DNA from: Euzebyales bacterium
GTDB lineage: Bacteria > Actinomycetota > Nitriliruptoria > Euzebyales > JAHELV01
Length of the DNA: 64,000 nt
Assembly (NCBI GenBank): GCA_036374135.1
Contig: DASUUK010000094.1
Span: forward strand, 156-64,155
Direction of reading: 5' to 3'
Program-made: the position numbers and the translations under genes
Shown: positions 5,926-51,457 of the stretch, piece after piece
Layout of the letters: each line of letters begins with the position of its first letter
Numbering within the stretch: the stretch's first letter is position 1
The notes under the pieces: generated by a model
Database searches by the model: none
Seen by the model: the letters and a program-made list of their open reading frames with translations, nothing else
Told to the model about the DNA's origin: nothing

Positions 5926-5942
5926 GTCGGCGACGCACGGCG

Positions 5943-20926: not shown

Positions 20927-21256
20927 GTGATCGAGCTGCACTGCCCGAACTGTGGGCCACGCAACGTCGATGAGTTCCGCTACATCGGCGAGCGGCGCGT
21001 ACGACCCGATCCCGCGACCGCGGATCAGGTGGCGTGGCGCACCTACCTGTACCTGCGCGTCAACCCGGCGGGATGGACCGACGAGACCTGGCTGCACCGC
21101 AACGGCTGCCGCCGCTACCTCGTGGTCGAGCGTCACACGGTGTCCAACGTGGTCCGCAGCGTGCGTGAGGCGGTCGGCGACGCGACCGGCGTGCACGCCC
21201 GAGCCGGACAGCCGGCGCACACCGACGGCGCAGCGTCGCCAGGGACGGGCGCGTGA
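20927..21256 (+). CDS. soxD: Sarcosine oxidase subunit delta
   Basis: In-frame GTG 20927 of ORF 20672..21256. (M)IELHCPNCGPRNVDEFRYIGE...WLHRNGCRRYLVVERHT is the SoxD zinc-binding pattern. Its stop overlaps the soxA GTG (GTGA). Confidence 0.85.
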   Translation: MIELHCPNCGPRNVDEFRYIGERRVRPDPATADQVAWRTYLYLRVNPAGWTDETWLHRNGCRRYLVVERHTVSNVVRSVREAVGDATGVHARAGQPAHTDGAASPGTGA

Positions 21257-24200
21257 GCACGGTCACCGGCCACGACGCCATGCGGCTGGGCGTGCAGCCC
21301 GGTGAGGTGATCGACCGCACACGCGAGGTCCGGTTCTCGTGGAACGGGGAGCCCCATCGCGGCTACGCCGGCGACACGATCGCGTCGGCCCTGGCCGCCG
21401 ACGGCGTGCGGGTGCTCTCGCGCAGCTTCAAGTACCACCGTCCGCGCGGGCTGCTGACGGCGAGCTTCCACGACCCGGGCTGCATCGTGCAGGTCGGCGA
21501 CGAGCCCAACGTCCGTGGCGCGCACCGACGTGTCGTCGATGGCATGGACGTACGTGCCCAGAACGCCTGGCCGTCGCTGCGCTTCGATGTCAAGGCGGTC
21601 AACCAGCTGCTGTCCCCGTTCCTGTCGTCCGGCTTCTACTACAAGACGTTCATGGCACCGCGGCCACTGTGGCCCGCGTACGCGCGGGTCCTGCGCCGGT
21701 TCGCAGCGGGCGGCCGCGTGCCGTCCACGCCGCCCCACGCGACCTATGACCAGCGTCATGCCCACGCCGACGTGGTCGTCGCCGGTGGCGGTCCCGCCGG
21801 CATGGCGGCGGCCGCGGCGGCCGCGGTCTCGGGAGCACGCGTGCTGCTCGTCGAGGAGGAGCACGCGCTGGGCGGGCACCTGCGCTGGAGCGGGCCCGAC
21901 GCGCGGGCGGCCCTGGCCGAGTTGCGCGACGCGGTCACGGCCGCGGGGGTCGAGGTGCTGACCGACGCCGTGGTGACAGGTCGCTACGACGGCAACTGGA
22001 TCGCGGTGCTGCAGCGCGGGCCGGAGCAGGCGACCGAGCGGCTGGTGAAGGTGCGCGCCGGCAGCCTCGTCGTGGCGCCGGGCCTGATCGAACGCCCGTA
22101 TGTCTTCGCCGGCAACGACCTGCCGGGCGTGCTGCTGTCGACGGCGGTGCGACGCCTGGTCAACCTGTACGCGGTGCGCCCCGGTACCGCTGCGGTCGTG
22201 CTGACCGCGAACGACGCGGGCGACGCCGCGGCCGACGACCTGGCCCGCGTGGGCATCGACGTCCGCGCCGTGCTCGACGCGCGCGCGGGCCGCGACGTCG
22301 TCCGCGCCCGTGGCCGTGGTGGGGTGCAGGCCGTCGAGTGCGGTGACGGCCGCACGATCGAGGCCGATCTGCTGGTCACGGCGACCGGTTGGACCGCGCC
22401 GACCGCGCTGCTCAACATGGCGGGCGCCGTTCCGACGTACGAGCCGCACGCGGCGCGGTTCCTGCCCGGCGACCTGCCGCCGGACGTCCAGGTGACCGGT
22501 GGGATCGCCGGTGACGGGCCGCTCGAGGACGTCGTCGACCACGGTCGGGCGACCGGTACCGCGGCGGCAGAACACGCGCTGACCCACCGTCGGCGGACGA
22601 CCGCGGCCTCGCGGAGGGATGTTCCCGATGACCAGCCGGTGCTGCGGGCGGCGGATCACCCTGCGCTGTTCCGTGCCCGCACGCACGGCTTCGTCGACTT
22701 CTCGGAGGACGTGACATCGAAGGAGCTCGTGGGCGCGGTCCACGAGGGCTACGACCACATCGAGCTGGCCAAGCGCTACACGACCGCCACGATGGGCCCG
22801 CTCCAGGGCAAGCTCGAGGTCGTCAACACCGTCGCCGTCGTGGCCGAGGCCACCGGCAGCGGCATCGCCGCGACCGGTACGACGGTGTGGCGTCCCCCGT
22901 ACGCGCCCATCAGCCTCGGCGCGCTCGCCGGACGCGTGCACGAGCCCGTGCGGCGCAGCCCGTTGCACGACTGGCACGTCGAGCACGGCGCGGCGCCGCT
23001 CATCGCCGGCGCCTGGATCCGTCCTGACCACTACGGTGACCCCGCCGGCGAGGCGCGCAACGTGCGGGAGGCCGTCGGCATCATCGACGTCACCCCGCTC
23101 GGCAAGCTCGACCTGCGGGGTCCCGACGTGCCGCGACTGCTGAACCAGCTGTATGTCAACAAGTGGTCGAAGCTGCCGGTCGGCGCCGTGCGCTACGGCG
23201 TCATGTGCACCGATGACGGCGTGGTGTTCGACGACGGCGTGACCGGCCACCTCGGCGACGACCACTACCTCATGACCACCACGTCGTCGGGCGCGCTCGC
23301 GGTGTGGGAGTGGGTCGAGAACTGGCTGCAGACCGAGCGGCCGGACTGGCGGGTCCACGTCACGCCGGTCACCACCGCGTACACCAGCATCAACGTCGCA
23401 GGTCCCCGGTCCCGCGAACTGCTGGCCCGGCTCGTCGACGGCGTCGATCTCGATCCCGACGAGTTCGGCTACATGCGGGTGCGTCGCGGGACGGTCGCAG
23501 GTGTCGCCGACTGCGTCATGTGGCGGATCGGGTTCACCGGCGAGCTGAGCTTCGAGCTGCACGTGCCGTCGGGCTACGGCCTGCACGTGTGGACCAGCCT
23601 GCTCACCGCGGGCGACGACCTCGGCATCCGGCCGTTCGGCGTCGAGGCCCAGCGCATCCTGCGGCTGGAGAAGGGGCACGCGATCGTCGGTCAGGACACC
23701 GACGGATTGACCCAGGCCTACGGTGCCGATCTGGAGTGGGCGGTCAAGCTCGACAAGCACGACTTCGCCGGCAAACCGGAGCTGGTGTGGCAGAAGGTGC
23801 GCGGCGACCACGACCACCTGGTCGGGCTGCAACCGGTCGACGGGTCGGTGGTGCCACCGGAGGCGAGTCAGATCGTCGAGTCCTCGACCACGATCGTGGG
23901 GCGGATCACGTCGAGCCGGATGTCCCCTACGCTGGGCCGATCGGTCTGTCTCGCCCACGTCGCGCCGCACCTCGCCGAGCCCGGAACGCTCGTGACCGTC
24001 GTCCTGCCGGACCGCCGTCGCATCCCCGCACGCGTGATGCCGCAGCTCGCGCACGTCGATCCCGACGGTGTGCGCCTGCGCGGCGAGCCGCCGTGGCGTG
24101 ACACTCCTCGCAGCGTCCCCATCGCGACGCCGCTGGCCCACCCGCCGGTCCCGGTGACCGGCCCGGCGGGTGTGATCGGTGGCTGGCGCGTGGGCACGGG

Positions 24201-24732
24201 CCGTAGCAACGCCGCGCTGCGGCTCGCCGACCACAGCGCGCTGGCCTGCACGTGGGTGCTCGCCCCGCGCGACGGCGCTGCAGCGGCGACGCTCGCGCCC
24301 GCGGGGCGCGCGGAACGGCGGTCGGATGGGGCCCTCGTGTGCGGCCTGGGTCCCGGCGAGTGGCTGATCGTCACCGCCGCCGGCGACACCGACGCGGTCG
24401 GACGCGTGCGCGCGGAGGTGCCCGGCCACAATGGGTTGGTGACGGTCATCGATGTCACCCACGGCCGGGCGCTGCTGCGGTTGACGGGCGAGGATGCACC
24501 CGCGGTGCTGGCGAAGGTGTGCGCGATCGACCTGCACGACGACGTCACCCCCGACGGCACCGCCCTGCGCACGAAGGTCGCGGCGGTCACCGCGGACCTC
24601 GTGCGTGACGACCGCGACGGCACACGCTCGTATCTCGTGGGCTGTGAGTGGTCGTCCGGGCGATACCTGTTCGACGAGATTCGACACGCCGGCGTCGAGT
24701 TCGCCGTCGCCGTGGACGGGTTGCACCCGTGA
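21253..24732 (+). CDS. soxA: Sarcosine oxidase subunit alpha with C-terminally fused gamma subunit (SoxA-SoxG fusion)
   Basis: 1159 aa in one frame. An N-terminal 2Fe-2S-like/NAD domain (DVVVAGGGPAGMAAA) is followed by a GcvT-like THF domain that ends ...HVDPDGVRLRG, the usual SoxA C-terminus (about aa 946). About 210 aa of SoxG-like sequence then follow (LRLTGEDAPAVLAKVCAIDLH...TKVAAVTADLVR). Confidence 0.88.
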   Translation: MSTVTGHDAMRLGVQPGEVIDRTREVRFSWNGEPHRGYAGDTIASALAADGVRVLSRSFKYHRPRGLLTASFHDPGCIVQVGDEPNVRGAHRRVVDGMDVRAQNAWPSLRFDVKAVNQLLSPFLSSGFYYKTFMAPRPLWPAYARVLRRFAAGGRVPSTPPHATYDQRHAHADVVVAGGGPAGMAAAAAAAVSGARVLLVEEEHALGGHLRWSGPDARAALAELRDAVTAAGVEVLTDAVVTGRYDGNWIAVLQRGPEQATERLVKVRAGSLVVAPGLIERPYVFAGNDLPGVLLSTAVRRLVNLYAVRPGTAAVVLTANDAGDAAADDLARVGIDVRAVLDARAGRDVVRARGRGGVQAVECGDGRTIEADLLVTATGWTAPTALLNMAGAVPTYEPHAARFLPGDLPPDVQVTGGIAGDGPLEDVVDHGRATGTAAAEHALTHRRRTTAASRRDVPDDQPVLRAADHPALFRARTHGFVDFSEDVTSKELVGAVHEGYDHIELAKRYTTATMGPLQGKLEVVNTVAVVAEATGSGIAATGTTVWRPPYAPISLGALAGRVHEPVRRSPLHDWHVEHGAAPLIAGAWIRPDHYGDPAGEARNVREAVGIIDVTPLGKLDLRGPDVPRLLNQLYVNKWSKLPVGAVRYGVMCTDDGVVFDDGVTGHLGDDHYLMTTTSSGALAVWEWVENWLQTERPDWRVHVTPVTTAYTSINVAGPRSRELLARLVDGVDLDPDEFGYMRVRRGTVAGVADCVMWRIGFTGELSFELHVPSGYGLHVWTSLLTAGDDLGIRPFGVEAQRILRLEKGHAIVGQDTDGLTQAYGADLEWAVKLDKHDFAGKPELVWQKVRGDHDHLVGLQPVDGSVVPPEASQIVESSTTIVGRITSSRMSPTLGRSVCLAHVAPHLAEPGTLVTVVLPDRRRIPARVMPQLAHVDPDGVRLRGEPPWRDTPRSVPIATPLAHPPVPVTGPAGVIGGWRVGTGRSNAALRLADHSALACTWVLAPRDGAAAATLAPAGRAERRSDGALVCGLGPGEWLIVTAAGDTDAVGRVRAEVPGHNGLVTVIDVTHGRALLRLTGEDAPAVLAKVCAIDLHDDVTPDGTALRTKVAAVTADLVRDDRDGTRSYLVGCEWSSGRYLFDEIRHAGVEFAVAVDGLHP

Positions 24733-34134: not shown

Positions 34135-35832
34135 TCAGGAGAGGCCGACGATCTGGCCGTCCTCGTCGATGTCGATGCGTTCCGCCGCAGGCGCCGATGA
34201 CAAGCCTGGCATCGTCCGCATGTCGCCGCACAACGGGTAGATGAAGCCGGCGCCGACCGACGCGCGGACCTCGCGGACCGGCAGCGTCCAGCCCGTGGGG
34301 GCGCCCTTGAGCGTCGGGTCGGACGAGATGGACAGGTGGGTCTTGGCGATGCACACCGGCAGGTCGCCGAACCCCGCCTCCTCGTACCGGTCGACCTGCC
34401 GTGCGGCCGCGGGCGTGTAGGACACGTCGTCGGCGCCGTAGACCCTGGTCGCCACCGCGTGGATCTTGTCGCGCAGGGTCAGCTCGTCCGGGTACAGCGG
34501 GGCGAAGGCCGTCGGTTCCTCGGCCGCCTCGGCCACCGCCTCGGCCAGTTCTGTCGCGCCGGCGCCGCCGTCGGCGAAGTGCGTGCTGACCGCGGCCCGC
34601 ACGCCCAGGTCCTCGGCGATCTCACGGATCGCGGCGTGCTCGCTCGGGTGGTCGGTGGGGAACGCGTTGATGCACACGACCGGCGACACGCCGTGCACGC
34701 GGATGTTGTCGACCTGTTTGCGCAGGTTCGCTGCACCGGCATGGACGTCGTCGGGGTTCTCGGCGAGCAGTTCGTCGGGCAGTGGACGGCCCGCCACGAT
34801 CCGGAACCGGCCCGAGTGGGCCTTGAGTGCTCTGACCGTCGTCACCAGCACCGCGGCGTCGGGCGACAGGCCTGACGTCCGGCACTTGATGTTGAAGAAC
34901 CGCTCGGCACCCATGTCCGCACCGAACCCGGCTTCGGTGACGAGGTAGTCGCCTCCGTGGATGCCGATCAGGTCGGCGACGACGGACGAGTTGCCGTGGG
35001 CGATGTTGCCGAACGGCCCGGCGTGGACCAGTGCAGGCGTGCCCTCGAGCGTCTGCATGAGGTTCGGCTTGATGGCATCGCGCATGATGACCGTCATCGC
35101 GCCGGCGGCGCGCAGGTCCTCGGCCGTGATCGGTTTGCCCTCGCGCGTCGTGCCGATCACGATGCGGCCCATCCGCTCACGCATGTCCGCCAGCGACGTC
35201 GACAGCGCCAGGACGGCCATGACCTCCGACGCCGCCGTGATGTCGAACCCCGACTGGCGTGTCACGCCATCGGCCTTCGGCCCGAGGCCGACGACGATGT
35301 TGCGCAGGGCGCGGTCGTTCACGTCGACCACACGTCGCCAGCTGACGCTGTCGACGTCGATGCCCAGCGCGTTGCCCTGGTGCAGGTGGTTGTCGACCAT
35401 CGCCGCCAGCATGTTGTGCGCGGCGGTGACGGCGTGCATGTCCCCGGTCAGGTGCAGGTTGAGCTGCTCCATCGGTACGATCTGGCTGTAGCCCCCGCCC
35501 GCGGCGCCGCCCTTGATGCCGAACGTCGGGCCCATCGACGGCTGGCGCACGGCGATCGCGGCCGACCTGCCGATGTGGCCGAAGCCCTGGCCCAGCCCGA
35601 CCGTCGTGGTCGTCTTGCCCTCCCCCAGCGGGGTCGGCGTGACCGCTGACACCAGGACGTACCTGGCGCGCGGGCGGTCGGCGAGATCGTCGATCGCGTC
35701 CAGCGAGATCTTGGCGACACCAGCGCCGTACGGCTCGAGGTGGTCGGGCCGGATCCCCATCTGAGCGGCGATGTCGGGCAACGGCTGCAGATCCGCGCCT
35801 CGGGCGATCTCGAGATCGCTGGGGAACGTCAT
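34135..35832 (-). CDS. fhs: Formate--tetrahydrofolate ligase
   Basis: Inner ATG (35830-35832) of ORF 34135..35871 with AAGGAG upstream. SDLEIA..., TPTPLGEGKTTTTVGL, AGFGADMGAEKF-like AGFGADMGAERFFNIKCR, and full-length FTHFS similarity. Confidence 0.97.
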   Translation of the reverse strand: MTFPSDLEIARGADLQPLPDIAAQMGIRPDHLEPYGAGVAKISLDAIDDLADRPRARYVLVSAVTPTPLGEGKTTTTVGLGQGFGHIGRSAAIAVRQPSMGPTFGIKGGAAGGGYSQIVPMEQLNLHLTGDMHAVTAAHNMLAAMVDNHLHQGNALGIDVDSVSWRRVVDVNDRALRNIVVGLGPKADGVTRQSGFDITAASEVMAVLALSTSLADMRERMGRIVIGTTREGKPITAEDLRAAGAMTVIMRDAIKPNLMQTLEGTPALVHAGPFGNIAHGNSSVVADLIGIHGGDYLVTEAGFGADMGAERFFNIKCRTSGLSPDAAVLVTTVRALKAHSGRFRIVAGRPLPDELLAENPDDVHAGAANLRKQVDNIRVHGVSPVVCINAFPTDHPSEHAAIREIAEDLGVRAAVSTHFADGGAGATELAEAVAEAAEEPTAFAPLYPDELTLRDKIHAVATRVYGADDVSYTPAAARQVDRYEEAGFGDLPVCIAKTHLSISSDPTLKGAPTGWTLPVREVRASVGAGFIYPLCGDMRTMPGLSSAPAAERIDIDEDGQIVGLS

Positions 35833-35872
35833 GTGGAGTCTCCTTGGATTCACTGATCTACCGCTCGCCACG

Positions 35873-41988: not shown

Positions 41989-42222
41989 AACCGTTGCCGA
42001 TGACGCGACGCATCGTGCCCCGCGGTGACAGCCGGGTCAAGCGTTGTGTCAGCGGTGGTGTCGGCGGTCGTGGGCTGCCCCGTCCAGACAGGGGTTCGTT
42101 CTTGCGTCGTACTCCACGATGCAGTGAACTGGCGCGAGCGTGCCGCAGGCACGCGGACCGCGCCAGCCGTCGCCCGGTGTGACGCGAGGGGCCAATCGAC
42201 ACGTCACAGCAGGAGGCCGATC

Positions 42223-43398
42223 GTGGTAGCGCTGCTGATGCTTGCGGCGGGGTTCGCACTCGGGTTGTTCTTCGGGTGGCTGCTGCACCGCGAGCGGGTC
42301 GAGCGCGCGCTGTACGAGGACGTCGCCCGTCACCGCGACCGGGCGACCGCGGCATTGGCGGAGACCTCGGCCCGGCTCGAGCTGGCGAACAAGGACATGA
42401 TCCGGCTCCGGAGCCAGCTCTCCGACTCCCAGCAACTGCTCGACGAACGGGACGCCACGATCGCCGATCTGCGCACGCGTCGCCCCGAGCGACCGACGGG
42501 CGACGACGAGGACGCGGACGTCGCCGAGGGAGTCACCGGCGGACCGGTCGACGCCGTCGCCGATGCCGCAACCACGCCGTCGGGCGTGACACGGCTCGAC
42601 GACGTCGACCGCACCGACATCACCGAGGAGGTCTCGCTCGCAGCACGCGGCCCGTCGAGGACCGAGTCGGCTGTCGACGCGGACCTCGGCGACGAGAACG
42701 ACCACACGATCGACGTGACGCCCCCCGCGAACGCCCGATCGGCGGGAGGAGTCGATGACGCCGCCTGGGACGAGCCGGTACGGGACGAACCGGCGGCGCA
42801 GGAGGTCGCTGCGCCGGTCGGTGGCGAACCGGCGGACGCCGGACCGGTCGCTGTGGAGCCCGTCGAGGACGAGGCCCCCGACGTCACTGCCGACGAGGCG
42901 GCCACGCCGGACGCCGGCGTCGCCGCTGAGGGCGCCCCCGCCACCGGGGACGCAGCGCCCGTCGACGAACCGGCCGGCGACCGCGAACTGTCGGAGGCTG
43001 GCGCCGATGCCGAGCTCGACCAGCGCGAGATCGGTGAGCCGCTCGTGGTCGACGAGCCTGCGGTCGGGACCGTCGTCGGCGGGGCGCAGGATCAACCGGA
43101 GATCGGTGAGCCGCTCGTGGTCGACGGGTCCACGGAACCGGCGGCCGAGACCACAGCCGCGTCCGAGCCGTCGGCCGGCCCCGACGATCTGCAACGCATC
43201 GCCGGGATCGGCCCCGCGCTCGAGTTGCAGTTGCGCGCCGAGGGCATCACGTCGTACCGCCGGCTGGCGCTGCTCGATGACGACACGATCGCCGACCTGC
43301 AGGCGCGTCGCCCGCAGCTCGTCACGCGGATGCGCCGTGGCGGTTGGGCCGCCCAGGCACGTAGGCTGCACGCCGAGATGCACGGCGAGTCGCTGTGA
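42223..43398 (+). CDS. Membrane-anchored coiled-coil / acidic low-complexity protein with C-terminal helix-hairpin-helix-like (DUF4332-like) motif
   Basis: In-frame GTG 42223 with AGGAGG 7 nt upstream (ORF 42025..43398). TM VVALLMLAAGFALGLFFGWLL, then coiled coil (ELANKDMIRLRSQLSDSQQLLDERDATIADL), then ~230 aa rich in D/E/A/P/V, then DDLQRIAGIGPALELQLRAEGITSYRRLA. Confidence 0.65.
   Translation: MVALLMLAAGFALGLFFGWLLHRERVERALYEDVARHRDRATAALAETSARLELANKDMIRLRSQLSDSQQLLDERDATIADLRTRRPERPTGDDEDADVAEGVTGGPVDAVADAATTPSGVTRLDDVDRTDITEEVSLAARGPSRTESAVDADLGDENDHTIDVTPPANARSAGGVDDAAWDEPVRDEPAAQEVAAPVGGEPADAGPVAVEPVEDEAPDVTADEAATPDAGVAAEGAPATGDAAPVDEPAGDRELSEAGADAELDQREIGEPLVVDEPAVGTVVGGAQDQPEIGEPLVVDGSTEPAAETTAASEPSAGPDDLQRIAGIGPALELQLRAEGITSYRRLALLDDDTIADLQARRPQLVTRMRRGGWAAQARRLHAEMHGESL
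43027..43126 (+). repeat. 28-bp perfect direct repeat (two copies 72 bp apart) inside the coiled-coil protein gene
   Basis: GAGATCGGTGAGCCGCTCGTGGTCGACG occurs at 43027-43054 and 43099-43126. It encodes EIGEPLVVD twice, with an in-frame 24-codon period. Confidence 0.9.
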
Positions 43399-43488: not shown

Positions 43489-44316
43489 TCAGTCCATGTA
43501 CTCCGACAGCGGCAGCCGGCGGGCGCCCGCACGTCGCAGCCACTCGTTCAGGTGCTCGACGACGGTGACACCACCGGCCGTGAGCCCACGGTGCATCGCG
43601 CCGCCCAGCTCCATCTGCCAGCCATCCACGCGCCCTCCCGCCTCGGAGACCAGCAGGCTGCCCGCGCTGAAGTCCCAGCGGTGCATCGTGAACTCCGCGT
43701 ACCCGTCCCAGCGCCCGGCCGCCAGCCAGGCCAGGTCGAGCGCGGCCGAACCGAACCGTCGCACGTCGCGGACCGAGCCGATCAGGTCGGCCAGCAACCG
43801 GCCCTGATCCGCACGGGCCGCCGGGTCATACGCGAAGCCGGTGGCGACGAGGGCGTCGGCAGGGTCGTCCACCGTCCTCACCGACAGCGCCTCCCCGTTG
43901 TGATGTGCGCCGGCGCCACGAACCGCGGTGAACACGTCGCCCCGGCTGGGATCGTGGACGACACCCGCGAGCGGGCCTTCCGCGTCCTCGACCGCGATGC
44001 TGACCGACCACTGCGGGATGCCGTAGAGGTAGTTGACCGTCCCGTCGAGCGGGTCGACGACCCAGCGCAGGCCGGTCGAGCCCTCGCGGTCGCCGGTCTG
44101 CTCCTCGCCGAGTTGCCCGTCGTCGGGTCGCGCCGTGCGGATGCGCTCGCTGATGAGGTGTTCGCTCGCCTGGTCGGCGGCCGAGACCGGATCCGTCGCC
44201 GACGTCTTGGTGTCGACCGACAGGCCGCCGCGTTCGGCGTAGGCGCACAGCAGTTGCCCGGCCTGACGCGCCATGTCGGTCGCCAGCGCCAGCAGTTCGG
44301 AGGGATCGTGGTCCAT
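43489..44316 (-). CDS. Inositol monophosphatase family protein (SuhB/HisN-like)
   Basis: Inner ATG of ORF 43489..44526, 275 aa. GEEQTG, WVVDPLDGTVNY, RRFGSAALDLAWLAAGRWDGY, WDFSAGSLLVSEAGG. Confidence 0.85.
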   Translation of the reverse strand: MDHDPSELLALATDMARQAGQLLCAYAERGGLSVDTKTSATDPVSAADQASEHLISERIRTARPDDGQLGEEQTGDREGSTGLRWVVDPLDGTVNYLYGIPQWSVSIAVEDAEGPLAGVVHDPSRGDVFTAVRGAGAHHNGEALSVRTVDDPADALVATGFAYDPAARADQGRLLADLIGSVRDVRRFGSAALDLAWLAAGRWDGYAEFTMHRWDFSAGSLLVSEAGGRVDGWQMELGGAMHRGLTAGGVTVVEHLNEWLRRAGARRLPLSEYMD

Positions 44317-44452
44317 CTCGTTCCTCGTCGTGTCGCCTCGTGAGCACGGCACCCGGACGGCGTGCGGCGTTGCGACGTCCGCGGAGCATTGTCGTGCAGG
44401 TGGCGCCGCTCGTCGGACCATGTGGTGATGGCCGTCCGGGTACGCTGCGCCC

Positions 44453-45211
44453 ATGATGTTCAGAGGCGTCGGTGTCGCGCTGGTCACGCTGTTCGACGAC
44501 ACCGGGGAGGTGGATGCGGTCGCCACGGCCGATCACGCCGCGCGACTTGTCGGCCTGGGGGTGCGGGCCGTCGTCGTCGCCGGGACGACCGGTGAAGCGG
44601 CGACGCTCAGCATCGACGAACGCGACCGCCTGCTCGACGCCGTGCAGTCGGCCGTCGACGCACGCGTGCCGGTGATCGCGGGCACGGGCGCCCCGTCTGC
44701 GCGGCAGGCAGCCGACCTCACGGCCCGCGCCCGCGACGGTGGTGCCGACGCGGTACTGGTGCTGTCTCCGCCACAGGCGCCCGATCCACGGCCCTACTAC
44801 GAGCGCGTGGCTTCGGTCGCCGGCGACCTGCCCGTGCTCGCGTACCACTTCCCGAAGGTGTCGCCGCCGGGCCTGCCGGTCGACGTGATCGGCACGTTGC
44901 CCGTCGCCGGCTGCAAGGACTCGACCGGCGATCCCGAGCGGCTGCTCGGCACCCTGCGCGCGACATCGCTGCCGCTGTACACCGGCTCGTCGGCACTGCT
45001 GTCGTTCGCCGGTCCGCTCGGATGCGCCGGGGCCATCCTCGGACTGGCCAACGTGGAGCCCGAGCGATGCGCCGAGGCGTTCGCGGGGGATGCCGGCGCC
45101 CAGCGCGCGCTGACCGCTGGGCACTTCGCGATGAGCGATCCGTTCCCGCGGGGTCTCAAGGAGCTGATGGCCGACCGCTTCGGGACGTCGACGGCGACCC
45201 GCGCCGCGTGA
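44453..45211 (+). CDS. Dihydrodipicolinate synthase/N-acetylneuraminate lyase family protein (short)
   Basis: 252 aa. FRGVGVALVTLFDDTGEVD, VVVAGTTGEAATLS, AYHFP, Schiff-base Lys context VAGCKDS. About 40 aa shorter than typical DapA at the C-terminus. Confidence 0.75.
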   Translation: MMFRGVGVALVTLFDDTGEVDAVATADHAARLVGLGVRAVVVAGTTGEAATLSIDERDRLLDAVQSAVDARVPVIAGTGAPSARQAADLTARARDGGADAVLVLSPPQAPDPRPYYERVASVAGDLPVLAYHFPKVSPPGLPVDVIGTLPVAGCKDSTGDPERLLGTLRATSLPLYTGSSALLSFAGPLGCAGAILGLANVEPERCAEAFAGDAGAQRALTAGHFAMSDPFPRGLKELMADRFGTSTATRAA

Positions 45212-45259: not shown

Positions 45260-45712
45260 TCAGGTGCGGTCGAGCAGGCGGGACAGCGCCACCACGCTGC
45301 GGGTCTGGGTGACGATCGGCTCGGCCCGGATGCGCTCGAGCGCCGCCTCGAGGTGGGTGGCGTCGGCGACGCGCAGGTGCAGTAGGGCATCGGCGTCGCC
45401 GGTGATGGTGAACGCCGACACGACCTCGGGATGATCGGCCAGGGCATCGCGGATCTGCTGCGACGGTGTGCGCGGTGCGCAGAACAGTTCGATGAAGGCC
45501 TCGACCCGCCAGCCCAGCACGCGGGGGTCGACGGTGATGGTGAACCGCTCGATCAGCCCGGCGTCCCGCAGACGGTCGACGCGCCGCTTGACCGCGGGCG
45601 CCGACAGGCCCACCGCCTCGCCGATCGACGCGAAGCTGCGTCGACCATCCTGCAGGAGCTGCGCAATGATCTTGCGATCTATCTCGTCGATGCGCAACGA
45701 ATCGCTGGCCAC
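45260..45712 (-). CDS. Lrp/AsnC family transcriptional regulator
   Basis: In-frame GTG (45710-45712) of ORF 45260..45766. LRIDEIDRKIIAQLLQDGRRSFASIGEAVGLSAPAVKRRVDRLRDAGLI HTH plus an RAM domain. Divergent from rocD. Confidence 0.9.
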   Translation of the reverse strand: MASDSLRIDEIDRKIIAQLLQDGRRSFASIGEAVGLSAPAVKRRVDRLRDAGLIERFTITVDPRVLGWRVEAFIELFCAPRTPSQQIRDALADHPEVVSAFTITGDADALLHLRVADATHLEAALERIRAEPIVTQTRSVVALSRLLDRT

Positions 45713-45818
45713 TCCCGAACATCCCAACCTATTGGTCTGTCGTGTCGGGCCGTAGAGTACAGACATCGACCGTCACCCGACCCTGGCGGTGTGCCGTCAT
45801 ACAGGAAGGTCGCCGACA

Positions 45819-47018
45819 ATGACCACCTTCAGCACCGCCGAGCGGACCAGCTTCGAGGCGCCCAACTACGCGCCGTTGCCGGTCGTCATCACCGAGGCGG
45901 AGGGCGCCTGGGTCACCGACGTCGACGGTCGCCGCTACCTCGACGCGCTGTCGGGTTACTCGGCGCTGAACTTCGGCCACCGCCACCCTGCGCTGGTGGC
46001 TGCGGCCGAGGAGCAGCTGCACCGGGTCACGCTGACCAGCCGGGCGTTCACCCACGATCAGTTCAGCGGGTTCTGTCGCGAGGTGGCGGAGCTGTGCGGC
46101 ATGGAGATGGTGCTGCCGATGAACACCGGCGCCGAGGGCGTCGAGACCGCGATCAAGGTCGCGCGGCGCTGGGGCTACACGGTCAAGGGCGTGCCGGCCG
46201 GCCGGGCGAAGATCGTCACCTTCGCCAACAACTTCCATGGCCGCACGACCACGATCATCGGCTTCTCGACCGACCCCGACGCGCGCGAGGGGTTCGGGCC
46301 GTTCACGCCGGGGTTCGTGACGGTTCCGTATGCGGACGCCGACGCGTTGACCGAGGCAATCGATGCCGACACGGTCGCCGTGCTGATCGAACCGGTGCAG
46401 GGCGAGGCCGGCGTCATCGTGCCGCCGGACGGCTACCTGACTCGGGTCCGGGAGATCTGTGACCGCGCCGGCGTGCTGATGATCGCCGACGAGATCCAGT
46501 CGGGCCTGGGGCGCACCGGGCGCACGTTCGCCATCGACCACGAGGGTGTGGTGCCCGACATGTTCATCCTCGGCAAGGCGCTGGGCGGGGGCATCATGCC
46601 GGTCTCGGCCGTCGTGAGCCGACGGGACGTGCTGGGCGTGCTGACGCCCGGTTCCCACGGCAGCACCTTCGGCGGCAATCCGCTGTCGTGCGCCGTCGCT
46701 CGTGCGGTCGTCGCGCTGCTGCGCACCGGCGAGGTACAGGCCAACGCGGCGCGGATGGGCGCGCGCCTGGCGGCGGGCCTCGCCACGCTGCCCAGCCGCC
46801 ACGTCGACGGCATCCGCACGCATGGACTGTGGGCGGGCATCGACATCGCCGGGGGCCGCACCGCCCGCTCGGTGTGCGAGCGTCTCCTCGAGCTCGGCGT
46901 GCTGTCCAAGGACACCCACGGCAGCACGATCCGCCTCGGTCCCCCGTTGACCGTGTCGGCCGACGAGGTCGATCTGCTCGTCGACCGCCTCGGCGAGGCG
47001 CTGGCGACGACCGTGTGA
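45819..47018 (+). CDS. rocD: Ornithine--oxo-acid aminotransferase
   Basis: Inner ATG of ORF 45789..47018, 399 aa. NYAPLPVV, class-III aminotransferase blocks NFHGRT, LIADEIQSGLGRTG, GKALGGG (PLP Lys), STFGGNPL. The AsnC-rocD pairing is common in Actinobacteria. Confidence 0.88.
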   Translation: MTTFSTAERTSFEAPNYAPLPVVITEAEGAWVTDVDGRRYLDALSGYSALNFGHRHPALVAAAEEQLHRVTLTSRAFTHDQFSGFCREVAELCGMEMVLPMNTGAEGVETAIKVARRWGYTVKGVPAGRAKIVTFANNFHGRTTTIIGFSTDPDAREGFGPFTPGFVTVPYADADALTEAIDADTVAVLIEPVQGEAGVIVPPDGYLTRVREICDRAGVLMIADEIQSGLGRTGRTFAIDHEGVVPDMFILGKALGGGIMPVSAVVSRRDVLGVLTPGSHGSTFGGNPLSCAVARAVVALLRTGEVQANAARMGARLAAGLATLPSRHVDGIRTHGLWAGIDIAGGRTARSVCERLLELGVLSKDTHGSTIRLGPPLTVSADEVDLLVDRLGEALATTV

Positions 47019-47165
47019 CGGTGCAGGTCATCGACGCCGTCGGTGCGTCGTGGTCGTCAGCGCACGCAGTGATCGCGCGACACGCGTCGACGTCGTTTCT
47101 GCCCGACACCATCGACGGGCAGTAGGGTTCGTCACGATGCGAACGGATCGACTCCCCGACACCTC

Positions 47166-48035
47166 GTGATGAGTGGTTCGGTGGCGCTGGCCACCGCCGG
47201 GGAGGCCATCGGGCTCGACGACGACGCACCGGTGCTGCACGCGGCGCTCGAACGCCGCGGTCTGCGGCCGACGCTGGCGGTCTGGGACGACGGTGACGTC
47301 GACTGGGCCGGCTTCGATCTGGTGGTGCTGCGCTCCACGTGGGACTACCCGCGACGGCGCGATGCCTTCCTCGGCTGGGCCGCGGACGTGGCGGCCGTGA
47401 CCAGGCTCCACAACGGGACCGACGTGATCGCGTGGAGCAGCGACAAGCGCTACCTTGCGGAGCTCCACGGGCGGGGCGTGGCGATCGTGCCGACGACGAT
47501 CCTCGCGCCCGGCGAACCCGTGACGCTGCCGCCCACGGGCCCGTTCGTGGTCAAGCCCGCGGTGTCGGCGGGTTCACAGGACACCGAGCGGTTCAGCGAC
47601 CACGATGATCCCGCGGCGCGCGCGCTGGTCGGGCGACTGCACCACCAGGGGCGGGACGTCATCGTCCAGCCCTACGTCGAACAGGTCGATGACCGCGGCG
47701 AAACCGCTCTGGTGTACCTGGGTGGGCGCTTCAGCCATGCCATCCGCAAGGGCCCGATCCTCGCGGGCGCGACCGAGACGGTCGGTGGGCTGTTCGCCGC
47801 CGAGCAGATCGATCCGCGCACGCCCACCGACGCCGAGCGCGCCGCCGGGGAGGCGGCGCTCGACGCCGTGCCCTTCGACCGGGCGGAGCTGTTGTACGGG
47901 CGCGTGGATCTGCTGCCCGGTACCGACGGCGACCCGCTGGTGCTCGAGGTCGAGCTCGTCGAGCCGTCGCTGTTCCTGCGGTGTGACGATCACGCGGCCG
48001 ACCGCTTCGCGGAGCTGATCGCCCGAGCGATGTGA
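47166..48035 (+). CDS. ATP-grasp domain protein (RimK/glutathione synthetase-like)
   Basis: 289 aa. LRSTWDYPRRRDAFLGW...SDKRYLAELHGRGVAIVPT...FVVKPAVSAGS...VIVQPYV...YGRVDLL...LVLEVELVEPSLF is an ATP-grasp layout. Substrate unknown. Confidence 0.75.
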   Translation: MMSGSVALATAGEAIGLDDDAPVLHAALERRGLRPTLAVWDDGDVDWAGFDLVVLRSTWDYPRRRDAFLGWAADVAAVTRLHNGTDVIAWSSDKRYLAELHGRGVAIVPTTILAPGEPVTLPPTGPFVVKPAVSAGSQDTERFSDHDDPAARALVGRLHHQGRDVIVQPYVEQVDDRGETALVYLGGRFSHAIRKGPILAGATETVGGLFAAEQIDPRTPTDAERAAGEAALDAVPFDRAELLYGRVDLLPGTDGDPLVLEVELVEPSLFLRCDDHAADRFAELIARAM

Positions 48036-48214
48036 CGGTTGCCGCGTGCGGGCGCCAGCACCCGCCTGACGACCCGGGACACGTCACCACCGCCGGTGGC
48101 TACCGACGCCTTCGACGGGCGTTGACGGTCGAAGGCCGACATGGCGGCGATCGTGGTCCGTGTGGCTGGGTAGTCTCGGCGTCACGCACACCCGGATCCC
48201 AGGAGTTCCACCAG

Positions 48215-48538
48215 ATGAGTGACGAGCGCAGCCTTTCCGAGCAGGACATCGAGTCGGTCCACGGCGGTTCGAGCGAGCCGGGCGGTGACGAGGTTGCGAC
48301 CGACGCCGACGCGGTCGACGCCGACGCGGTCGACGGTGACGCGCTCGACGCGGTGGACGGCGACGCATCCGATGCGGATGCGGTGGATGCCGACGGCGCG
48401 GACGCTGACGCCGACGCGAACGACGGCGACGCGTCCGATGCGGTGGACGGTGACGCGTCCGACGCGGACGCAAGTGACGGTGACGCCACCGATACGGTGG
48501 ACGGCGACGCCGCCGACGCCGATGCCCACGACGCGTAG
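48215..48538 (+). CDS. Hyper-acidic Asp/Ala-repeat protein (107 aa), no recognised family
   Basis: Inner ATG of ORF 48032..48538 with AGGAG 9 nt upstream. MSDERSLSEQDIESVHGGSSEPGGDEV, then ~80 aa of D/A/V/G/S/T repeats (DAVDGDASDAD...). No K/R after residue 5, and no signal peptide or TM. Repeat units differ mostly at synonymous sites. All other frames are Arg-rich shadows. Confidence 0.6.
   Translation: MSDERSLSEQDIESVHGGSSEPGGDEVATDADAVDADAVDGDALDAVDGDASDADAVDADGADADADANDGDASDAVDGDASDADASDGDATDTVDGDAADADAHDA
48298..48535 (+). repeat. Imperfect in-frame GAC/GCG-rich tandem repeats encoding the Asp/Ala tract
   Basis: Units such as GACGCGGTCGACGCCGAC / GACGGTGACGCGTCCGAC recur with irregular length and GAC/GAT, GCG/GCC/GCA alternation. 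Confidence 0.85.
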
Positions 48539-48547
48539 CGGACCGAC

Positions 48548-49765
48548 GTGACCGACACCTGGGAGGGACCTGCGCCGGCGACGGACGCGCTCGCCCGGTG
48601 CGTGGGTGACGTGGACACGTTCGTCGAGCGCGCCTGGGGTCGGCAGGCCCTCCTGCACCGGCGTGCGGGTGATGACAGGTTCGACGACCTGCTGTCGCTC
48701 GATGACGTCGACCGCATCCTGACGGCCACGTCGCCGCGACGGCCCGCGATCCGGGTGGTGCGCGAGGGGCGTGAGGTCGCGCCGAGCCGCTACACGCGCA
48801 CCGGAACGCTCGGCTCCCGGACGTTGACCGACCTTCCTGACGTCGACCGCCTGCTCGGGCTGTTCGACGAGGGTGCGACCATCGTGCTGCAGGGGCTGCA
48901 GCGCACCTGGCCCGCCGTGGGCCGGCTGTGCCGCGGCATCGAGGCCGTCCTCACCCACCCGGTCCAGGCCAACGCGTACCTCACACCACCGAGCTCGCAG
49001 GGCCTCGACGTCCACCACGACACCCACGACGTGTTCGCGCTGCAGACGTACGGGCGGAAGCGCTGGGTGACGTATCCGCCGGTGATCGACCACCCGTTGC
49101 CGGGCCAGCACCGTCGTGTCGACGACGACGAGCTCGACCATCCCGACATCGACACCGACCTGGTGCCGGGCGACTGCCTGTACGTCCCGCGCGGCACGCT
49201 GCACGCCGCCGCGACCACGGGCGACGCGTCGCTGCACCTGACCATCGGTGTGCGGGTCGTGACCTGGTACGACCTCGCCCGCCGCCTGCTCGAGCGCACA
49301 CGCGACGTCGCAGCCTTCCGCGAGGCGCTGCCGGCCGGCTTTGCGCGCGATCCGCAGCTGCTCCGTGACGAGGTGCCGGGTCGGCTCAAGCAACTCGCCG
49401 ACCTGATCGCCGACACCGACCCGGATGCGGTGGCCGACCGGGAGGCCGATCGCCTGTGGCGGGGACTGCTGGCCCGTCCGGACGGCGCGCTGCGCATGCG
49501 CCTGGCCGACATCGACGACGACACGGTGGTCGAGCCGCGCGACGATCTGCCGTTTGTGATCTCCCGCGTCGGCGACCGTCTGCGGGTCCGTCGCGGCGGC
49601 ACGACGTTGCAGATGCCGGCCTGGGTCGAGCCCGCCCTCCGGGCGGTGCTGACAGGACCCACGCGGCTCGGCGCGCTGCCGGGTGGCCTCGACGCGCCGT
49701 CACGCGTCGTGCTGGCGCGGCGGTTGGTGCGCGAGGGCATGATCGTCGTTCGTGGGGCGGCGTGA
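48548..49765 (+). CDS. JmjC/cupin-4 family 2-oxoglutarate/Fe(II) oxygenase (ribosomal-oxygenase-like architecture)
   Basis: 405 aa. GTG start 9 nt after the acidic ORF stop. Facial triad candidates VHHDTHD (HxD) and PRGTLHAA, plus QANAYLTPP and FALQTYGRKRW blocks. The long C-terminal helical/winged-helix-like part resembles YcfD-type enzymes. Confidence 0.85.
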   Translation: MTDTWEGPAPATDALARCVGDVDTFVERAWGRQALLHRRAGDDRFDDLLSLDDVDRILTATSPRRPAIRVVREGREVAPSRYTRTGTLGSRTLTDLPDVDRLLGLFDEGATIVLQGLQRTWPAVGRLCRGIEAVLTHPVQANAYLTPPSSQGLDVHHDTHDVFALQTYGRKRWVTYPPVIDHPLPGQHRRVDDDELDHPDIDTDLVPGDCLYVPRGTLHAAATTGDASLHLTIGVRVVTWYDLARRLLERTRDVAAFREALPAGFARDPQLLRDEVPGRLKQLADLIADTDPDAVADREADRLWRGLLARPDGALRMRLADIDDDTVVEPRDDLPFVISRVGDRLRVRRGGTTLQMPAWVEPALRAVLTGPTRLGALPGGLDAPSRVVLARRLVREGMIVVRGAA

Positions 49766-50661
49766 CCGAACGCTTCCGCTGCGCCGCCGCCGCGCAGGCC
49801 GTGGGAGAGCCGCGGTACGCGACGGCCTCGACCGTGCGTCGGTGGGTGCTGGTCGAGCAACCGGGTCCGTGGGGCATCGACGCGGTCCGCGAGAGCCGCA
49901 TGCCGTCGGCGGCCTCCGAGGCGCTCGTCGACCTGGGCAAGCGTCTCGCCGCACGCGTGCTGCTGATCCGGCGTCCGGGCAACGTCGCGTCCGACGACAC
50001 ACGCGTGTACATCGCGTTCACGGGCGCGCGGGACCGCTGGCTCGAGTCATTCGTCGTTCACGGCGTGCCGGACGTGCTCGACCTCGACCTCGATCCACTC
50101 CGCAACGGTGGTCGGGTCGGTGGCGAGGTCACCGTCGGACCGCTGCTGCTGGTGTGCACGAACGGGCGGCACGACCCGTGCTGCGCCGAGTTCGGTCGAC
50201 CGGTCGCCGACGCGTTGGGCCGCGCCTTCCCGGACGCGACGTGGGAGGTGTCCCACATCGGTGGCGACCGCTTCGCCGGCAATGTCGTGACGTTGCCCGA
50301 CGGGATCTACTACGGCGGGCTCGACGCCGACCGTGCGGTCGCGGTCGCCGGGGCGCACCGCTCCGGCCACATCGTGCTCGACGCCTACCGCGGCCGCAGC
50401 GCCTACCCGTTCCCGGTGCAGGCCGCGGAGTTCTTCCTCCGGCGTGAGCGGCGCCTCGACGGGCTCGACGCCGTGCGCTGGACCGGGCGTCGGCGGCTCG
50501 ATGACGACCAGTGGCGCGTCACCTTCGCCACGCCGAGCGGCGCCGTCGACGTCGAGGTCGTCACCGGTCGTGAGCCGGTCGCACGGCAGCTGACCTGTCG
50601 GACCGAACAACTCGCCCGCGCACCCCGCTACAGCCTGGTGGCGATCGATGCCGCCGGCTGA
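49762..50661 (+). CDS. Sucrase/ferredoxin-like (Suc_Fer-like, thioredoxin-fold) protein
   Basis: In-frame GTG 49762 overlaps the cupin stop (GTGA), 299 aa. WVLVEQPGPWG, LLLVCTNGRHDPCCAEFGRP, SHIGGDRFAGNVVTLPDGIYYG are characteristic blocks. Confidence 0.8.
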   Translation: MTERFRCAAAAQAVGEPRYATASTVRRWVLVEQPGPWGIDAVRESRMPSAASEALVDLGKRLAARVLLIRRPGNVASDDTRVYIAFTGARDRWLESFVVHGVPDVLDLDLDPLRNGGRVGGEVTVGPLLLVCTNGRHDPCCAEFGRPVADALGRAFPDATWEVSHIGGDRFAGNVVTLPDGIYYGGLDADRAVAVAGAHRSGHIVLDAYRGRSAYPFPVQAAEFFLRRERRLDGLDAVRWTGRRRLDDDQWRVTFATPSGAVDVEVVTGREPVARQLTCRTEQLARAPRYSLVAIDAAG

Positions 50662-51457
50662 ACCGCACCCCCTGCACGACGTCGTCGCCGCGCTGCTTCG
50701 CCGCGTCGCCACCGAGGTGGTCCTCGTCCACTTCCGCTCGCTGTCGGACCACGACGTCCGGGAGAAGTCACCCGGCGATCCGGTCACCGTCGCCGACGAA
50801 CAGGCCGAGGCGCAGCTGCGCGCCGGCCTGCTCCAGGCGCTCCCCGCCGCCCGGGTCGTCGGTGAGGAAGCCGCCAGCGCCGACCCATCGCTGCTCGACG
50901 GGCTCGGCGAGGGCACCGTGTGGGTGGTCGATCCGATCGACGGCACGTCCAACTTCGCCGACGGAGTGAGCCCGTTCGCACTGATGGTCGCACTGGTCGA
51001 TGACGGCCTGACGACCGCCGGGTGGATATACGACCCCGTCGCCGAGCGGCTGTGTCACGCGCATCGGGGGCACGGCGCCTTCGTGGACGGCCGCACGGTC
51101 CTCGCACGCGCGAGCGGTGCGGACCCGCCGCGGGCGATGCTGGCGACGACGTTCACGTCCGCGGACGAGCGGGGTGACCGCGCGGCCCGCGCCGCCGGCA
51201 GGTTCACCGAGGTTCCGAATCCACGCTGTGCCGGCGAGCAGTACCCGCAGGTGGTGCTGGGCGAGACCGATGTCGCGCTGTTCCAGCGGGCGCTGCCGTG
51301 GGATCACGCGCCCGGCACGCTGTTCGTGTCCGAGGCGGGCGGGCGTGCGGCCCGCCCGGACGGCACGCCGTACCGGGTGGCCGACCGTCGTCCCGGCCTC
51401 CTGATCGCGGCGACCCCGCTACTGTGGGACAGCGCCGCGACGGTCCTGTTCGACTGA
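50648..51457 (+). CDS. Inositol monophosphatase-fold family protein (second paralogue in window)
   Basis: 269 aa. Overlaps the preceding gene by 14 nt. VTVADEQAE, VVGEE, WVVDPIDGTSNF, WDHAPGTLFVSEAGG. Confidence 0.85.
   Translation: MPPAEPHPLHDVVAALLRRVATEVVLVHFRSLSDHDVREKSPGDPVTVADEQAEAQLRAGLLQALPAARVVGEEAASADPSLLDGLGEGTVWVVDPIDGTSNFADGVSPFALMVALVDDGLTTAGWIYDPVAERLCHAHRGHGAFVDGRTVLARASGADPPRAMLATTFTSADERGDRAARAAGRFTEVPNPRCAGEQYPQVVLGETDVALFQRALPWDHAPGTLFVSEAGGRAARPDGTPYRVADRRPGLLIAATPLLWDSAATVLFD

Follow-up and report, generated by a model that had tools for sequence, protein, structure and literature searches.

The subject of this report is a short gene for an acidic, aspartate-rich repeat peptide, located at positions 48215–48538 of a 64,000-nt stretch of Euzebyales bacterium DNA (contig DASUUK010000094.1, hereafter the window) and followed directly by genes for a JmjC-type Fe(II)/2-oxoglutarate (2OG) oxygenase and a Suc_Fer-like ferredoxin. 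Sequence comparison shows the window to contain a single copy of a self-contained cassette found widely in Actinomycetota. We propose that the peptide attaches to the oxygenase through a conserved N-terminal motif, that the repeats are multiply hydroxylated, with Asp C-beta as the likeliest position, and that the ferredoxin serves as a redox helper; we give this joint reading a probability of roughly 0.45. Its parts differ in strength. A direct functional partnership between peptide and oxygenase is very probable, the odds that the peptide is the substrate of the oxygenase are about even, and Asp C-beta is put forward only tentatively as the site of modification. The features of the cassette in the window are as follows.

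48201–48205, + strand: Shine-Dalgarno sequence AGGAG, 9 nt 5' of the ATG of the peptide gene, read directly from the sequence
48215–48538, + strand: gene for the 107-residue acidic repeat peptide, stop codon included (ATG at 48215, TAG at 48536–48538)
48233–48256, + strand: N-terminal family motif in its window form, L-S-E-Q-D-I-E-S (residues 7–14), located with the motif logo of 77 loci
48296–48535, + strand: repeat core, residues 28–107, made of DxDxx pentads (DADAV, DGDAS and similar); the proposed modified region
48548–49765, + strand: gene for the 405-residue JmjC_2, ribosomal-oxygenase-type Fe(II)/2OG oxygenase (Pfam, PDB profile, AlphaFold2/Foldseek)
49762–50661, + strand: gene for the 299-residue Suc_Fer-like protein with a thioredoxin-like [2Fe-2S] ferredoxin core (Pfam, AlphaFold2, Foldseek)

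The acidic repeat peptide gene of the window

The peptide begins with a mixed N-terminus of 27 residues, MSDERSLSEQDIESVHGGSSEPGGDEV, which is followed by an 80-residue core (residues 28–107) consisting of 31 Asp, 26 Ala, 7 Gly, 6 Val, 4 Ser, 3 Thr and one each of His, Leu and Asn. Beyond R5 there is no Lys or Arg, the only histidines are H16 in the leader and one near the C-terminus, and Asn occurs once. Within the core, Asp residues are spaced in a strict alternation of two and three residues, which gives the DxDxx rhythm. An earlier note on this DNA had described the AGGAG, the ATG, the stop, the 107-residue product and the gene junctions, all of which we reproduced; its transcript of the peptide is correct overall, apart from the residues 'AT' before the repeats, whose omission is immaterial. 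The same note had compared the repeats with the DxDxDG repeats of thrombospondin, a likeness that is not supported: the D-x-[DN]-x-[DN]-G calcium loop of the thrombospondin type 3/EF-hand-like kind gave zero matches in the window peptide, in which the period is DxDxx instead.

Judged by its sequence, ORF (open reading frame) 48215–48538 is a genuine gene and not a frame left open by chance within repeats of high GC content. GC at its three codon positions (0.84/0.48/0.82) is close to that of the neighbouring genes (~0.79/0.50/0.89), with which its usage of Asp, Ala, Gly and Val codons also agrees, and the DNA repeats within it are imperfect, with 65–88% matches. For comparison we used the additional close-relative contigs L081 (the closest relative of the window), L082, L084 and L085, in which the JmjC protein is 79–89% identical to that of the window. 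The AGGAG-ATG start is kept in four such related contigs (L081, L082 and L084 among them), as is the leader MSDER(S/T)LS(E/D)(Q/E)DI(E/N)(S/T)V.GG, and the ORF homologues in these contigs, of 113, 105, 83 and 75 residues, have been called as genes by the JGI, ENA and NCBI pipelines. Between L081 and L082 (113 versus 105 residues), and again between L084 and L085 (83 versus 75 residues), the peptide differs in frame by one 8-residue repeat unit. Since the JmjC protein is identical within each of these pairs, the repeat copy number appears to be polymorphic within populations. A bias towards synonymous change, which the earlier note had proposed to look for in relatives, is seen in the leader, where 7 synonymous and 3 non-synonymous substitutions separate the window from L081; the corresponding ratio for the JmjC gene is similar, at 95:45.

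Neither Pfam nor NCBIfam placed the window peptide, or any of ten peptides with other repeat types, in a family, and the only matches were spurious low-complexity ones to SD-repeat adhesins. An exact look-up of the 107-residue product in a collection of 15 billion proteins showed that it was not present there. Homologues of the peptide are annotated in their source databases as 'hypothetical protein' and in one case as 'BatC protein'.

A peptide family upstream of JmjC genes

At E < 1e-10, more than 3,000 relatives of the window JmjC protein were found, and a genome scan with one genome per species gave at least 592 loci encoding a JmjC homologue. The best 80 of these (38–73% identity to the window JmjC protein) were taken with 6-kb flanks as a survey set, in which JmjC starts are estimates from tblastn alignments and peptide start codons were picked heuristically. 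Usable upstream sequence was available for 77 of the 80, and in all 77 a short, same-strand ORF rich in Asp, Gly, Ala and Thr abuts the JmjC start; the same-strand, frame-conserved acidic ORF that the earlier note had proposed to look for in such neighbourhoods is found there in every case. In these 77 loci the stop of the peptide ORF lies between −37 and +145 nt from the estimated JmjC start (median −6 nt). The ORFs encode 46–155 residues (median 81) with a pI (isoelectric point) of ~4 and an average composition of 24% Asp, 20% Gly, 13% Ala, 12% Thr and 8% Ser, while Cys and aromatic residues are nearly absent.

Members of the family share an N-terminal motif with the consensus L-x-D-[DE]-[DE]-[IM]-x-T, from which the window form LSEQDIES diverges slightly. 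In the motif logo, L is present in 66 of 77 sequences, D in 75, [DE] in all 77, [IM] in 76 and T in 66. Six-frame translation of the comparison loci (1.78 million residues) contains the strict six-residue motif 82 times. Of these occurrences ~69 are the upstream peptide ORFs, where the motif is found beyond chance; its background rate is negligible. A second common element is the C-terminal pattern D-x-D-x-x-D-[ASR]. The sequence after the N-terminal motif is hypervariable, with at least five repeat flavours. The DADAV/DGDAS flavour occurs in the window and in survey locus L001, DADGT/DGDAT in Nitriliruptoria and Egibacteraceae, and DTDGVDTT in Acidimicrobiia. A Gly-rich flavour, GEGPADGGSNPEGHDGGADGTA, is found in Mycolicibacterium, Gordonia, Agromyces, Cryobacterium and Branchiibius, with a related form in Pseudonocardia and Motilibacter; its unit N-P-x-G-H-D-G-G-A-D-G is near-invariant. 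The fifth, in two Streptomyces species, is a tail of Asp, Gly and His without repeats. Inspection by eye showed that no residue other than Asp recurs in the repeat units of all these flavours.

The pairing of peptide and JmjC genes extends over Nitriliruptoria, Acidimicrobiia, Egibacteraceae, Gaiellaceae, Solirubrobacteraceae, Nocardioides, Agromyces, Cryobacterium, Pseudonocardia, Gordonia, Mycolicibacterium and Streptomyces. Because Mycolicibacterium, Gordonia, Nocardioides, Pseudonocardia, Agromyces and Streptomyces are cultured carriers, the cassette is open to direct testing. A profile built from 34 peptides matched just 52 of 1.84 billion representative proteins; as the peptides are too short and too variable for such a model, this figure is uninformative about the distribution of the family. 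That the family is missed by profile databases is explained by its short, low-complexity and hypervariable sequences, and it provides an example of a conserved small gene that can be found only via its genomic context.

Some individual loci deserve mention. The full cassette also occurs in contigs binned outside Actinomycetota, namely L044 and L053 (Acidobacteriota) and L086 (Sandaracinaceae), with peptides near-identical in type to those of Acidimicrobiia or Nitriliruptoria; these occurrences may reflect horizontal transfer or mis-binning. The peptide ORF at L036:~5750–5977 looks frameshifted, as it ends after 47 residues and the DGTD repeats go on in another frame. Since L036 comes from a long-read metagenome-assembled genome, this is probably an assembly error and not a pseudogene. 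The peptide of L018 is unusual in its length of 155 residues and in its SADGTDQGVxGGTYGPRDA repeats. Finally, mycobacterial-type loci (L080:~5640–5700, L078 and L065) share a conserved non-coding stretch, GTTTCGATTGCCCGTTCTGCGGCAACAC(T/A)C.A.CGC.CGC, ~90–140 nt 5' of the peptide ATG. It could be a promoter or operator and gave no Rfam match.

The oxygenase

By every testable criterion, the product of 48548–49765 is a member of the JmjC_2/ribosomal oxygenase (ROX) family. Its gene starts with a GTG at 48548, 9 nt past the peptide stop, and the protein is identical to an NCBI entry named 'cupin domain-containing protein'. It matched JmjC_2 (PF08007) with an E-value of 4e-25 and 88 bits, compared with a cut-off of 22, and no other Pfam family above threshold. 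Profile searches against the PDB retrieved NO66 (9e-32), MINA53 (1e-27) and YcfD (1e-10). The AlphaFold2 model has a mean pLDDT (predicted local distance difference test) score of 91.4 and was matched by Foldseek to NO66 with E=1e-27 and a TM score of 0.68. As the model superposes on NO66 over ~450 columns, the JmjC barrel, the helical middle domain and the C-terminal winged helix (approximately residues 327–401) are all present. The catalytic segments align to h-YD, GRKLW and PRGFIHQA of NO66. Since the Fe ligands H156, D158 and H219 and the 2OG-binding K171 (in GRKRW) are invariant in alignments of 13 and of 50 sequences, the oxygenase should be catalytically competent. Overall pI and net charge are unremarkable in both the JmjC and the Suc_Fer families. 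The earlier note had also considered that the enzyme might be a plain orthologue of a ribosomal-protein hydroxylase in a conserved but unrelated context. This does not agree with the survey, in which the JmjC gene is preceded by the peptide ORF in all 77 usable loci.

The Suc_Fer-like ferredoxin

The GTG start of the third gene (49762) overlaps the TGA stop of the JmjC gene in the sequence GTGA (49762–49765). The encoded protein, identical to an NCBI entry named 'sucrase ferredoxin', matched Pfam family PF06999 (Suc_Fer-like) at 8e-17 and 62 bits, with a cut-off of 34.9. In the AlphaFold2 model (pLDDT 95.7), the central ~100 residues match Aquifex Fd4 (1m2b; Foldseek probability 0.98, TM score normalized to the target 0.70). 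Candidate ligands of the cluster are C132-X8-C141 and H165-X3-D169, of which C132, C141 and H165 are invariant. At the fourth-ligand position, D169 is invariant in a 50-sequence alignment, and Cys or Glu is found in a few of the 68 survey members; C7, C140 and C279 are further conserved cysteines. About 200 residues flanking the thioredoxin-like ferredoxin (TLF) core are confidently modelled and have no convincing structural match in the PDB. Their weak likeness (probability ≤0.3) to the hibernation factors HPF, YfiA and RafH probably reflects a shared alpha/beta topology. A Suc_Fer-like gene lies directly 3' of the JmjC gene in 68 of the 80 survey loci, or 68 of the 77 with downstream sequence. 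We know of no function or partner assigned so far to bacterial Suc_Fer-like ferredoxins.

Proposed function and alternatives

A short conserved N-terminal handle, a variable tail of Asp and small residues, coupling to an intact oxygenase and the lack of any other conserved gene are together what would be expected of a dedicated, iteratively modified substrate. We suggest that the peptide binds the oxygenase by its N-terminal motif, possibly at the C-terminal winged-helix domain, and that the flexible repeat tail, presumed to be intrinsically disordered, would pass through the active site and be hydroxylated there many times over. Of the possible targets, Asp C-beta is the most likely, as only Asp is shared by the repeats of all flavours inspected. 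NO66, MINA53 and YcfD hydroxylate His or Arg side chains at C-3, and the same C-3 chemistry applied to the common residue Asp would yield beta-hydroxy-Asp. The product, poly-(beta-hydroxy-Asp), would be a polyanion capable of strong metal chelation (Fe(III) or Ca(II)). As a guess, the ferredoxin might keep the oxygenase iron as Fe(II), or return it to that state, during iterative and partly uncoupled turnover, or it might supply iron. The physiological role could be metal binding or buffering, stress protection or O2-dependent regulation. Since no conserved leader protease or exporter lies nearby, a classical secreted RiPP (a peptide made by ribosomes and modified after translation) or metallophore is not supported. 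The product may stay inside the cell and, as neither a conserved exporter nor a signal peptide was found, a role within the cell is no less likely than that of a secreted metallophore.

Several observations weigh against this scheme. No conserved protease, exporter or regulator was found in the survey flanks, and a search of the 300 nt 5' of 77 peptide genes for IdeR, Zur and Fur boxes, allowing up to 5 mismatches, gave no match. The Gly-rich repeats also offer His, Asn and Pro, which are known targets of 2OG oxygenases, and the nearest solved relatives of the enzyme are His hydroxylases. In two Streptomyces species the tail is non-repetitive and rich in Asp, Gly and His. 2OG oxygenases normally need no ferredoxin, for which reason the role given to the Suc_Fer-like protein is guesswork. 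Moreover, in about eight loci (L012, L018, L026, L027, L041, L054, L058 and L070) peptide and JmjC genes occur with no adjacent Suc_Fer-like gene, so that the invariant core would be the peptide–oxygenase pair, with the ferredoxin as a frequent third member. An Arg-rich helix of the winged-helix domain, VLVRRLVREG, was considered as specific evidence of leader binding and dropped, because it resembles a generic recognition helix of winged helix-turn-helix domains. A profile of the C-terminal domain, compared with the PDB in search of relatives of RiPP recognition elements (RREs) or PqqD, gave only a non-significant match to a winged helix-turn-helix domain of the MarR type. PF08007 JmjC domains with RRE-like C-terminal folds have been reported in a recent survey (PMC12710340).

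The most serious alternative, which we consider unlikely, is that the oxygenase has in the acidic peptide a dedicated partner and not a substrate: a polyanionic chaperone or decoy for a basic client, an inhibitor or regulator, or a tail that delivers Fe(II) or another metal, with the JmjC enzyme hydroxylating some other protein. This would suit a full-length ROX protein, whose characterised relatives act on ribosomal proteins, and the absence of a RiPP-type protease or exporter from our search results. The extreme negative charge of the peptides (pI ~4) is appropriate for binding a basic protein or cations, and the N-terminal motif would be equally good as a binding handle. However, a chaperone or regulator acting in stoichiometric amounts is not expected to have a repeat region that varies freely in number and sequence with Asp kept, no known ROX enzyme is so tightly paired, and no candidate client is encoded nearby.

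An alternative of still lower probability retains the peptide as substrate and replaces the chemistry. His, Asn, Pro or Thr might be hydroxylated, or the enzyme might catalyse desaturation, cross-linking or a ferredoxin-dependent reaction beyond the simple hydroxylase cycle. The near-invariance of the unit N-P-x-G-H-D-G-G-A-D-G in the Gly-rich flavour is consistent with this idea, as is the activity of NO66 and MINA53 as His hydroxylases, and the presence of a conserved Fe-S protein is suggestive of additional redox steps. Macrocyclisation by 2OG enzymes in RiPPs, as reported in a paper cited in the survey mentioned above (reference 45 within PMC12710340), also counts in its favour. Against it, His, Asn and Pro are missing from most repeats of the window type.

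The remaining alternatives fare much worse. It is very unlikely that all four overlapping genes, including a downstream gene of the inositol monophosphatase (IMPase) family, form one functional operon with a phosphatase step. Such a unit is suggested by the 14-nt overlap of the Suc_Fer-like and IMPase genes in the window and by the same arrangement in L081, but it is largely refuted by the survey, as detailed in the next section. Even less can be said for the small ORF as a cis-regulatory upstream frame, for instance an Asp-codon-rich attenuator that controls the JmjC gene and has a functionless product. The ORF does directly precede the JmjC gene, to which it is translationally coupled, and has a very high content of a single amino acid. 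Its length of 46–155 residues, however, is far above that of known attenuator peptides, and neither the conserved N-terminal motif nor the synonymous-site bias nor the conserved C-terminal pattern fits a functionless product; a search for terminator or attenuator structures and for Rfam matches found none. Lastly, a chance open frame in GC-rich tandem-repeat DNA, in which all three frames tend to stay open, is refuted by the presence of ORF and motif in 77 of 77 loci, the coding-like GC profile, the retained ribosome-binding site and the restriction of indels to in-frame ones.

If the peptide is indeed the substrate, bacterial ROX-type JmjC enzymes would have a second type of target in the form of a dedicated and genetically linked peptide, bacterial Suc_Fer-like ferredoxins would gain a function and a partner, and there would be a ribosomal route to poly-hydroxy-aspartate, a motif otherwise known from non-ribosomal peptide synthetase siderophores and epidermal growth factor (EGF) domains. 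A bolder version, which we hold to be doubtful, is that the cassette represents a new and widespread class of ribosomally made polyanions, in which a ROX-type JmjC enzyme and a Cys2-His-Asp [2Fe-2S] ferredoxin make a poly-beta-hydroxy-Asp chelator, buffer or O2-dependent switch with neither protease nor exporter. It would give the ribosomal-oxygenase family its first substrate other than a ribosomal protein and its first Fe-S partner.

Boundaries of the unit and neighbouring genes

One more gene had been included in the unit by the earlier note, which saw a four-gene arrangement:

50648–51457, + strand: gene for a 269-residue IMPase-family protein (Pfam Inositol_P, 3e-43), overlapping the Suc_Fer-like gene by 14 nt

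Pfam thus confirms the three folds that had been assigned by inspection to the larger proteins (JmjC_2, 4e-25; Suc_Fer-like, 8e-17; Inositol_P, 3e-43), and the proposed arrangement is not upheld. Apart from the window, only L081 has an IMPase gene next to the cassette. It is missing from that position in all 80 survey loci, L001 included, and in L084 and L085, and the contig of L082 ends there. From its distribution in these genomes, the IMPase gene is best described as a lineage-specific passenger outside the conserved cassette, and the unit accordingly comprises two or three genes, not four. Against NCBIfam, the IMPase protein scored under every equivalog cut-off and came near HisN and CysQ. 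A second ORF of the same family, WVVDPLDGTVNY, lies at 43489–44526 on the − strand of the window, ~6 kb 5' of the first, so that the stretch holds two paralogues.

All-against-all clustering of the ORFs within 6 kb on each side of the survey loci showed conservation of the JmjC and Suc_Fer genes only, the third large cluster being the antisense shadow of these two. When the 103 nearest flanking genes were classified with Pfam, no family occurred in more than 5 loci. The earlier note had mentioned neither this lack of a conserved protease or exporter nor the N-terminal motif or the Gly-rich flavour of the family. No C39-peptidase ABC transporter (PCAT) was found among the large ORFs of the 64-kb window or conserved in the 80 loci, and a WYL-regulator gene was found in none of the 80. 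Downstream of the JmjC gene in the loci that have no adjacent Suc_Fer-like gene are unrelated genes, encoding an SRAP peptidase, an epimerase, a Zn-dehydrogenase, a Tn3 transposase and others. A scan for promoters and terminators found nothing, Rfam gave no match in the window region or in 11 loci, and PADLOC matched none of the four proteins to a defence system.

Upstream of the cassette in the window, positions 45260–48035 hold genes for an AsnC-type regulator (− strand), a class-III aminotransferase (+ strand) and an ATP-grasp protein resembling D-cycloserine synthetase (DcsG; + strand). This block is independent of the cassette and syntenic in L082 and L084. The DcsG-like gene (47166–48035) was considered as a member of the cassette and rejected, as another gene lies between it and the peptide gene in L081, L082 and L084, and the aminotransferase and AsnC genes are its constant companions. 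Its product scored 277 bits against NF058666, not reaching the cut-off of 360, and among the survey loci this ATP-grasp gene is near the cassette only in the closest one, 2 kb away. A different ATP-grasp ligase, similar to PGM1 and composed of Pre-ATP-grasp, ATP-grasp and PGM1_C domains, is encoded directly 5' of the peptide gene in one sublineage (L003:2919–4373, L007:4102–5589, L008:1707–3161 and L010:4149–5636). PGM1 is a ligase that acts on ribosomal peptides in pheganomycin biosynthesis, and this rare neighbour hints that the peptide may receive extra processing in that sublineage.

Elsewhere in the window, a 457-residue ORF at 42025–43398 (+ strand) has a coding-like GC content by codon position and no Pfam match at 1e-5. 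Genes for a 1159-residue fused protein resembling the alpha subunit of sarcosine oxidase (Fer2_4, FAD and GCV_T domains and a SoxG-like C-terminus; 21253–24732, + strand) and for formate-tetrahydrofolate ligase (34135–35871, − strand) make up a block of one-carbon metabolism.

Comparison with known systems

Our search of the full-text literature found no description of the cassette, although many papers in subscription journals are outside its coverage; the system looks undescribed, with a peptide-modifying 2OG oxygenase and a dedicated ribosomal substrate as its proposed components. In its general layout it resembles a RiPP cluster, as a short precursor with a conserved leader motif and a hypervariable core adjoins a modifying enzyme in 77 of 77 loci, but it differs in that the survey loci encode no conserved leader protease or exporter. 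The window segment L7-S-E-Q-D-I-E-S-V-H-G-G18 fits the LSxxELxxIxGG spacing of double-glycine leaders, as do several relatives, and in many family members a GG occurs 4–6 residues past the motif. The GG is not invariant, however, and the C39-peptidase ABC transporter that accompanies double-glycine precursors is neither present in the window nor conserved in the loci.

Among the closest known parallels are JmjC-type Fe/2OG hydroxylases of ribosomal precursor peptides, CzlI from the curacozole pathway (PMC11575548) and PbsQ/BpmG from the biphenomycin pathways (PMC12257519), the activity of which depends on sequence flanking the core (PMC11575548, PMC12257519). As in the cassette, the gene for the enzyme adjoins that for the precursor peptide. 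These enzymes, however, are accessory ones that carry out one hydroxylation within clusters containing class-defining enzymes, proteases and transporters, whereas the cassette has no enzyme besides the oxygenase, and its putative core consists of a long polyacidic repeat. In addition, CzlI resembles YxbC and not NO66.

Beta-hydroxylation of peptidyl Asp has precedents in SmaO, an Fe/2OG enzyme of a graspetide aminomalonate pathway that acts on Asp in Gly-rich 'DG/GD' contexts (PMC12186529), and in CinX/DurX (cinnamycin/duramycin) and AspH (EGF domains) (for CinX and AspH, PMC6817910). SmaO-type precursors present Asp in Gly-rich DG/GD contexts, as the cassette repeats do. In contrast, SmaO, CinX and AspH modify one or two sites, the cassette has no HD-domain partner of the SmaX type, and Asp chemistry, not established for ROX enzymes, is suggested for the cassette from its repeats.

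The ferredoxin shares the Pfam Suc_Fer-like domain, the TLF core fold and the CX8C motif with Apd1/Aim32, in which the cluster ligands follow the pattern CX8C...HX3H (PMC8482512). It differs in having H-X3-D for H-X3-H, additional conserved cysteines (C7, C140 and C279) and ~200 flanking residues, in being bacterial and in its tie to a JmjC gene.

With the ROX enzymes NO66/RIOX1, MINA53/RIOX2 and YcfD/RoxA, the oxygenase has in common PF08007, the three-domain architecture, the HxD...H triad and the 2OG-binding Lys. To our knowledge, those enzymes have basic ribosomal proteins as substrates (His/Arg C-3) and no peptide or ferredoxin partners. The window protein is only ~23% identical to them and belongs to a distinct clade, in which an acidic peptide gene is always found 5' and a [2Fe-2S] ferredoxin gene usually 3'. 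The context of the JmjC gene is unlike that of any characterised ROX member, and its conservation points to the acidic peptide, and not a ribosomal protein, as the candidate target of the oxygenase.

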